64,000 bases of DNA from Dictyostelium discoideum (Eukaryota). Below the pieces are notes generated by a model. It ran no database searches. It was not told the origin of the DNA and saw only the letters and a program-made list of their open reading frames with translations. Of this stretch, positions 50,300 through 50,880 are shown one piece after another. Both the position numbers and the translations under genes were made by a program. The stretch's first letter is position 1, and every line of letters starts with the position of its first letter. The stretch is from positions 4,000,001 through 4,064,000 of the forward strand of contig CM000152.2 in assembly GCA_000004695.1 (NCBI GenBank). The letters run 5' to 3'.

Positions 50300-50880
50300 T
50301 GGATCTTTTTGTGAATAATTGAATTAATTCTGAAAAAAAAAAGTTATTTTGAAAAAGATCGAGTATTCCCGGAAAAGATCAATCTTTTCGCGAAAAATTT
50401 TTCATTGGCCATATTATTTTTTTAATTTTAATTTTTTTCATTTATTCACAATTAAAATAAAAAATATAATAAATAAATAAATAAAATAAATAGTATGATT
50501 GACAAAAAAAAATCAAAAATACCGGGGCTCAAATAAAGGATTTATTTTTTATATGTAGTTTTTTTTTTTTTGAAGTTCCTTTTTTTTTTTGAAGTTCATT
50601 TTTTTTTATATTTTCTTTATTTCTCTATAAATACAACCAAATTTAATTCTACGATAGGCCTTAACAAATATTGTTTAATATTATTTAAAATTTTTGTTTT
50701 AAATAATGTGTTTTATTGAAAAAAAAAAAAAAAAAACATATGAAAAGTGAAAAATTTTTCAAAAAAAAATAAACTTTTTTCGAAATAACTGAATTTATTC
50801 CGGGACAACTCGATCTTTTTCAAAATAACTTTATTTATTCAGAATTAATTCAATTATCCACTGATAGGTCCATTGTAAAA
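50300..50880. mobile_element. MITE-like element: ~80-100 bp terminal inverted repeats (50312..50410 and 50765..50868) flanking ~360 bp AT-rich internal sequence with a short tandem duplication (TTGAAGTTCCTTTTTTTTT x2)
   Basis: The reverse complement of 50790..50880 aligns with 50291..50400 (GATAATTGAATTAATTCTGAA...GTTATTTTGAAAAAGATCGAGT.GTCCCGGAA). The arms contain unusual GC-richer words (CCCGG, CGCG). No coding capacity. Confidence 0.55.

Follow-up and report, generated by a model that had tools for sequence, protein, structure and literature searches.

What is the long inverted repeat that lies directly upstream of a SAP-domain gene of Dictyostelium discoideum, and how did it get there? 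We addressed this question in a stretch of 64,000 nt, referred to as the window, which has a G+C content of 22%. Gene products of the window, e.g., the pseudouridine synthase XP_640817.1, were identical to proteins of D. discoideum AX4. A sequence-only reading had described the repeat as a MITE-like foldback element and a non-autonomous DNA transposon. Sequences outside the window are designated by L numbers.

The foldback element and its locus

The element is located 3' of paralog 2 and 5' of paralog 1, two SAP-domain genes of a tandem array that is encoded on the minus strand. The following features of the locus are relevant:

46834..50127, minus strand: SAP-domain paralog 1, 1097 aa (ORF; Pfam SAP / SAP_new25), downstream of the foldback
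50128..50300, minus strand: native upstream region of paralog 1, from the element to the ATG, homologous to spacer 2 and to L006 21494-21711 (84%)
50301..50871, no strand: whole foldback (MITE-like) element, 571 bp, non-coding, delimited by end-to-end homology to L011 12428-12986
50301..50405, plus strand: left arm, "type A", from the four-arm alignment, 94% identical over 111 nt to the right arm in L011
50406..50765, no strand: AT-rich non-coding interior, 15% G+C, no ORF >49 aa, kept in the L011 copy
50766..50871, minus strand: right arm, "type B", from the four-arm alignment, 85% identical over 114 nt to the left arm in L011
50872..51225, minus strand: native 3' flank of paralog 2, homologous to spacer 2 and to both L006 spacers
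51226..54087, minus strand: SAP-domain paralog 2, 953 aa (ORF; Pfam SAP), upstream of the foldback

Blastn aligned positions 50278-50400 to the reverse complement of 50771-50895 with 82% identity over 125 nt (E 7e-29), and the local alignment of the arm pair reached a score of 136. The arms are reverse complements, as claimed before; the identity of 80% measured over ~105 nt was slightly below the ~85% originally given. The earlier arm coordinates held with small shifts, and comparison with a second copy set the ends of the element at 50301 (GGATC...) and 50871 (...GGTCC). When the whole 64-kb window was compared to its own opposite strand, the arm pair was the top-scoring inverted repeat and the remaining matches were A/T sequences of low complexity.

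The other structural claims of the sequence-only reading were confirmed. The arms are GC-rich for this locus (26% G+C, compared to 15% in the interior and 14-17% in the surrounding spacers), and the interior is non-coding with a longest ORF of 49 aa. The interior also harbors a tandem duplication, a 19-bp unit T11GAAGTTC(C/A) at ~50559-50599 with the copies 19 nt apart. Exact look-up of the small-ORF peptides of the foldback in a protein collection gave no match, and a tRNA search of the foldback region was negative. Scans with arm words resulted in a chance match to a bacterial gene in metagenomes (L002), a chance match to a Pirellulales contig with 58% G+C in prokaryote genomes (L009) and no match in viral sequences.

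A 721-nt stretch around the element is predicted to fold at -183/-185 kcal/mol, corresponding to z values of about -12/-10 when compared to shuffled sequences. The symmetry seems to reach 50248/50948, and its outer part consists of A/T runs. Since the same runs flank the empty site in L006, this outer extension of the repeat is probably native target sequence and not part of the element.

The array itself shows several other features. The gene for paralog 1 was also called in assembly GCA_054883475.1. Paralog 2 and DDB_G0281303 were looked up as well, without a matching record. Paralog 3 is represented by three ORFs (54498-55748, 55866-57059, 57156-57518), which reflects either introns or decay, and the annotation of GCA_054883475.1 joins paralogs 3 and 2 into a single product of 1854 aa (L001 2713-8902). 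Paralog 1 has a glutamine-rich (CAA/CAG) tract of ~180 codons (window 48620-49170), which is missing from paralogs 2 and 3. The array is positioned between the pseudouridine synthase and G-alpha genes (window 46834-57518) and differs in copy number: the window and L006 each have three SAP copies, L003 has about two (one of them 5'-truncated) and L010 has a single one, while D. citrinum (L007) and D. firmibasis (L008) lack them. L004 contains a second SAP cluster located elsewhere, with ~6 copies that are more divergent.

Two further parts of the window may be mentioned. About 500 bp 3' of a tRNA-Ala (AGC) gene at 14778-14850 (plus strand) begins an ORF of 882 aa that encodes a reverse-transcriptase domain and has no ATG start (15353-18001, plus strand). 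Together, 14778-18001 show the layout expected of a 5'-truncated non-LTR retrotransposon of the TRE3 type, which targets tRNA genes. Positions 21371-22888 (505 aa) and 24758-26272 (504 aa) are neighboring paralogous genes whose products combine a cathepsin propeptide inhibitor domain (I29) with two CBM49 carbohydrate-binding domains.

A second copy and the ends of the element

Transposon-rich loci were sampled by means of an integrase-like (rve) gene that was first met in L004. One of them, L011 (assembly GCA_054859355.1, contig JBTAPG010000042.1), contains a second full-length copy of the foldback at 12428-12986, which is 559 bp long and has the opposite orientation. Alignment of both copies resulted in 520 matches, 38 mismatches and 14 gap columns, i.e., 93% identity, and this identity covers the arms and the interior, including the tandem duplication. 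The similarity halts at GGACC... on one side and at ...GGTCC on the other, and the flanks in the window and in L011 are unrelated. The arm is, therefore, not single-copy, having a full-length relative at an unrelated locus. The arms are also not a segmental duplication of flanking gene sequence, as neither of them matches the flanks, the flanking genes or any other part of the window beyond A/T sequence of low complexity. Two copies were seen in total, in two different genomes; one of them is in the AX-type sequence examined (window, L005, L012), which totals ~95 kb and contained no second copy.

Terminal inverted repeats (TIRs) at the very ends, small non-coding size (571 and 559 bp) and empty sites are all present. 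The second copy, the sharp ends of homology and the empty sites described below supported the reading as a MITE-like non-autonomous DNA transposon. We consider it likely that window 50301-50871 is one copy of a small class II (cut-and-paste) element that is non-autonomous and belongs to the D. discoideum species complex, and we infer that its mechanism is transposase-mediated, with a 3-bp target-site duplication (TSD) as the rule. The two copies share 93% identity, whereas orthologous intergenic flanks of the two genomes concerned share 83-86%, which fits a transposition around or after the split of the window and L006/L011 lineages.

The alignment of all four arms (window and L011) revealed a common terminus, GGACCTATCAGTGAATAATTGAATTAAT. 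Inside of it follow an A-rich stretch, the conserved block GTTATTTTGAAAAAGATCGAGTT.TCCCGGAA and then two different forms of the arm. Form A comprises the left arm in the window and the right arm in L011, form B the right arm in the window and the left arm in L011. The inner halves of type A and type B arms differ alike in both copies, and the identity is 77-80% from arm to arm versus 93% from copy to copy. Because the same A/B difference occurs in both copies and the identity between copies exceeds that between arms, the alignment argues that the asymmetry predates the two copies and is a trait of the family rather than decay after a local duplication.

The family terminus of 22 nt, GGACCTATCAGTGAATAATTGA, is perfect at both ends of the L011 copy. 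Compared to this sequence, the right terminus of the window copy (minus strand, GGACCTATCAGTGGATAATTGA) has one substitution and the left terminus (GGATCTTTTTGTGAATAATTGA) has four. Due to this decay of its left terminus, the window copy has probably lost its mobility.

The sequence-only reading had proposed to look for TSDs of 2-10 bp at the copy ends. A candidate TSD with identical repeats was seen in L011, and in the window the repeats differ. The filled site in L011 reads ...GCGAC AGT [GGACC...GGTCC] AGT AACAAAAGAG, while the corresponding empty site in L012 reads ...TCTGTT AGT AACAAAAGAG with a single AGT. To the left of this site, 6-9 nt could not be aligned (ACAAGCGAC in L011 versus TCTGTT in L012). 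By analogy with L011 and L012, two triplets of the window come into question:

50298..50300, no strand: left flanking triplet AAT, candidate imperfect 3-bp TSD
50872..50874, no strand: right flanking triplet ATT, candidate imperfect 3-bp TSD

With one clean case (AGT/AGT) and the differing AAT/ATT of the window, insertion is probably accompanied by a 3-bp target-site duplication. A systematic scan of the window site for TSDs yielded low-complexity candidates only. Among other models, the sole 5-bp candidate in the window, TTTGC/TTTGC (50260-50264, 50944-50948), was rejected, as it lies beyond the element ends and the flanking A/T runs are also found at the empty site in L006. TA (Tc1/mariner-like) and TAA (Harbinger-like) duplications fit the right junction and do not fit the left one.

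We also considered that the locus encodes a hairpin RNA, either an siRNA precursor or a young microRNA, that is kept for its stem of ~100 bp, with transposition being secondary. The strong predicted fold (-183 kcal/mol, z about -12) would be in agreement with such a function, the element adjoins a putative promoter and could be transcribed, and intergenic hairpins as well as thug-S repeats are reported sources of microRNAs in D. discoideum (PMC4894637, PMC6161686). However, no Rfam match with E<=1 was obtained for 49000-52500, and neither Table S1 of PMC6161686 nor Table S4 of PMC4894637 (chromosome 3) contained a match by sequence or coordinates. Compared to the described precursors of 75-125 nt, the stem is much too long and the loop of 360 nt much too large, the interior is conserved between the copies as well as the arms, and the four substitutions in the left terminus of the window copy are not compensated in the right arm. 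We regard this explanation as unlikely; a role as hairpin RNA is possible as an added property of the foldback.

The surroundings of the L011 copy suggested another alternative. There, the foldback is nested in an rve-encoding DNA transposon at L011 10025-13823, which measures 3,799 bp with the foldback. This rve element has TIRs of 124 nt with 98% identity that start with TGTCCCATGCC, and the direct repeat TATGGA is present at both of its ends. The foldback could, thus, be an internal module of a subfamily of rve transposons (Tdd- or thug-S-like), and the window copy would be a solo fragment without independent mobility, left by partial insertion, deletion or gene conversion. In line with this, the sole other copy found is placed inside an rve transposon just past the integrase gene, and the 3,799 bp of the host with foldback are close to the lengths of TDD-4 (3,839 bp) and TDD-5 (3,783 bp) (PMC2836005). 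On the other hand, the window flanks contain no rve sequence, and the homology to L011 starts and stops at the inverted ends of the foldback. A copy of the rve transposon in L012, from an AX-type assembly, misses precisely the foldback: L011 12361-12415 matches L012 18298-18352 and L011 12987-13120 matches L012 18359-18506, so that the sequences flanking the foldback are only 6 bp apart and represent an empty site. A truncated rve element in L004 was also without the foldback. Local alignment of all four foldback arms to the TIR of the rve element gave background scores only, and the ends of the two elements are unrelated. An origin as internal module appears improbable from these results, and an independent non-autonomous element remains our preferred reading.

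A local inverted duplication or palindrome, generated by template switching or break repair and not mobile, would suit the position of the element at the junction of two tandem duplication units and the A/T runs that lengthen the symmetry on both sides, but it is highly implausible given that another genome has, at an unrelated locus, a copy of 93% identity in which interior and arm asymmetry are the same, and that the arms do not match the flanking sequence.

The rve transposon in L011 is apparently complete, and subterminal repeats of lower identity reach ~430 nt. The published microRNA miRNA_can_D3 (both strands) is reported to derive from the thug-S transposon (PMC4894637). It matches, with one mismatch, subterminal repeats of the rve family at L012 9091-9240 and 18821-18905. 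As judged from these matches, the rve element may be identical to thug-S of dictyBase, or both may share repeats. The same transposon-rich locus of the AX-type assembly also contains a near-perfect palindrome of ~480 nt (L012 11426-11907 / 13018-13500), which adjoins a truncated rve gene and has arms that are 94-100% complementary and ~1.1 kb apart.

Empty sites and the probable insertion upstream of paralog 1

The claim that the element enlarged the spacer held true: spacer 1 (50128-51225) has 1.1 kb, compared to 0.4 kb for spacer 2 (54088-54497). Both spacers are homologous to the left of the element (49507-50242 versus 53470-54187, 91%) and to the right of it (50964-51400 versus 54278-54690, 77%). 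In between, ~720 bp of spacer 1 replace ~90 bp of spacer 2, which has no foldback.

We retrieved the same chromosomal region from other assemblies via the flanking proteins. The AX-type assembly GCA_054883475.1 (L001/L005) was 99.8% identical to the window and contained the foldback. The divergent wild D. discoideum assembly GCA_054859355.1 (L006) showed ~90% nucleotide identity and the same three-copy array, in which spacer 1 has its orthologue between copies B and C. L006 21494-21711 aligned to window 50248-50033 with 84% identity, and L006 21331-21423 aligned to window 51051-50957 with 83% identity. Between the anchors ATTGTGAATTATTATAATG and ACAGCAACACC there are 72 bp in L006 versus 711 bp in the window. 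The 72-bp stretch consists of a T-run followed by AAAACAAAAAAAAC..., and in the best alignment made by hand the element falls at the junction of a T-run and an A-run; GTTGGA beside one end of the filled site in the window could not be aligned to the empty site in L006.

The arms were absent from all four loci of "D. cf. discoideum" (L003, L010), D. citrinum (L007) and D. firmibasis (L008). L003 and L010, with one or two SAP copies, have no comparable spacer, and L007 and L008 have no SAP array at this position. Because an orthologous spacer is missing, these four loci cannot date the insertion. By parsimony, the comparison of the spacers indicates that the foldback entered spacer 1 in the AX-type lineage after the array had formed. 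It is also possible that the empty sites in L006 and L012 were made by deletion and do not represent the state before insertion.

If the foldback is a mobile element, the following course of events can be proposed. A transposase supplied in trans would recognize the 22-nt termini and perhaps also the block GATCGAG/CCCGG, which is conserved in the subterminal region. This enzyme would cut the unit out and integrate it elsewhere, probably with duplication of 3 bp of the target. In the ancestry of the AX-type laboratory strains, the window copy would have landed where the T-run meets the A-run. This point is ~170 bp from the ATG of paralog 1 on its 5' side and separates the core promoter of that gene from the 3' flank of paralog 2. 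The spacer would have grown from ~0.4 to 1.1 kb. The decay of its left terminus would have occurred later.

In gene sense, the native upstream region of paralog 1 (50128..50300) contains the TATA-like sequence ATTATAAT followed by a T-run. This is the layout found upstream of Dictyostelium transcription starts (PMC6161686). Since both motifs remain between the element and the ATG, the core promoter of paralog 1 is probably intact and only more distal sequence would be displaced. Upstream regulatory sequence of paralog 1, if there is any, was pushed 571 bp further off by the foldback. The element may have an effect on the expression of paralog 1, which belongs to a young SAP array of variable copy number.

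On the other side of the element, the 3' flank of paralog 2 contains a conserved non-coding block that begins with ACAGCAACACC at 50960. A block of this type, ACA(G)CAACACC..TTTCCAAATTAAAAAAA ... TAATCTGAAAAGTGTGATG, is found 3' of each SAP paralog (window 50960-51070, 54272-54365). It is kept in both window spacers and in both L006 spacers amid A/T runs, had no match in Rfam, and may be a 3'-end or regulatory element.

Significance and comparison to known element families

The DNA transposons of D. discoideum have received little study. According to a review, their expression and control have not been analyzed, and their transposases resemble none known (PMC5633606). The foldback is short and has defined ends, sister strains provide empty sites for it, and the copy of a wild strain may be intact. 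It could, therefore, serve as a handle for finding the transposase. It could also help to date insertions among long-read strain genomes and to ask whether insertions that form hairpins feed the small-RNA pathway. An autonomous element whose ends match was not found; the sole transposon compared, the rve element, has unrelated ends.

The foldback is a routine kind of object and may already be included in repeat libraries. Our tentative suggestion, which we hold to be rather doubtful, is that it represents a family missing from the published complex repeats of D. discoideum, a MITE with a 3-bp TSD that is maybe still mobile in wild strains. Such mobility is considered because the termini in L011 are perfect and the divergence between the copies is below that of orthologous intergenic DNA. 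An uncatalogued family would imply a transposase type that is undescribed in this species, e.g., PIF/Harbinger-, CACTA- or Zator-like.

The foldback shares several characteristics with Tourist/PIF-Harbinger MITEs. It is smaller than 600 bp and non-coding, has TIRs and a probable 3-bp flanking duplication, is found beside genes and inside another transposon, and is present or absent depending on the strain. Tourist/PIF elements end with GG(G/C)CC..., to which GGACCT... of the foldback is loosely similar. Unlike these MITEs, the foldback has long arms (~105 nt) that are matched to ~80%, and it was seen in two copies. The triplets AGT and AAT/ATT also differ from the TAA/TTA that is typical for PIF/Harbinger.

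DDT and thug elements share the host with the foldback and are obvious candidates for its family or its partner. These families of D. discoideum were reportedly described by Glockner et al. in 2001. Considered by name only, the foldback could be a copy of DDT-S, thug-T or another small member that is already catalogued. The DNA transposons of this species are grouped as Tdd, DDT and thug; DDT (DDT-A, -B, -S) and thug (thug-S, -T) have poorly characterized transposases and together make up ~1% of the genome (PMC5633606).

Tdd-4 and Tdd-5 are 3.8 kb in size, with repeats of 260-297 bp, 5-bp duplications and the TGT ends of their superfamily (PMC2836005). Like these members of the Ginger2/Tdd group, the foldback appears as a cut-and-paste element of Dictyostelium with long TIRs, and in L011 it is nested in an rve element of such type. 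Unlike Tdd, it has GGACC ends and a 3-bp flank repeat; in the comparison of ends, the rve element served as proxy for Tdd. We did not assign the foldback to Tdd because its ends differ from those of the rve element and because of the 3-bp flank repeat.

Drosophila Foldback (FB) and Galileo-type elements resemble the foldback in folding back through long inverted arms. While the arms of FB consist of tandem subrepeats and account for most of the element, each arm of the foldback comprises 105 of 571 nt and is free of tandem subrepeats.
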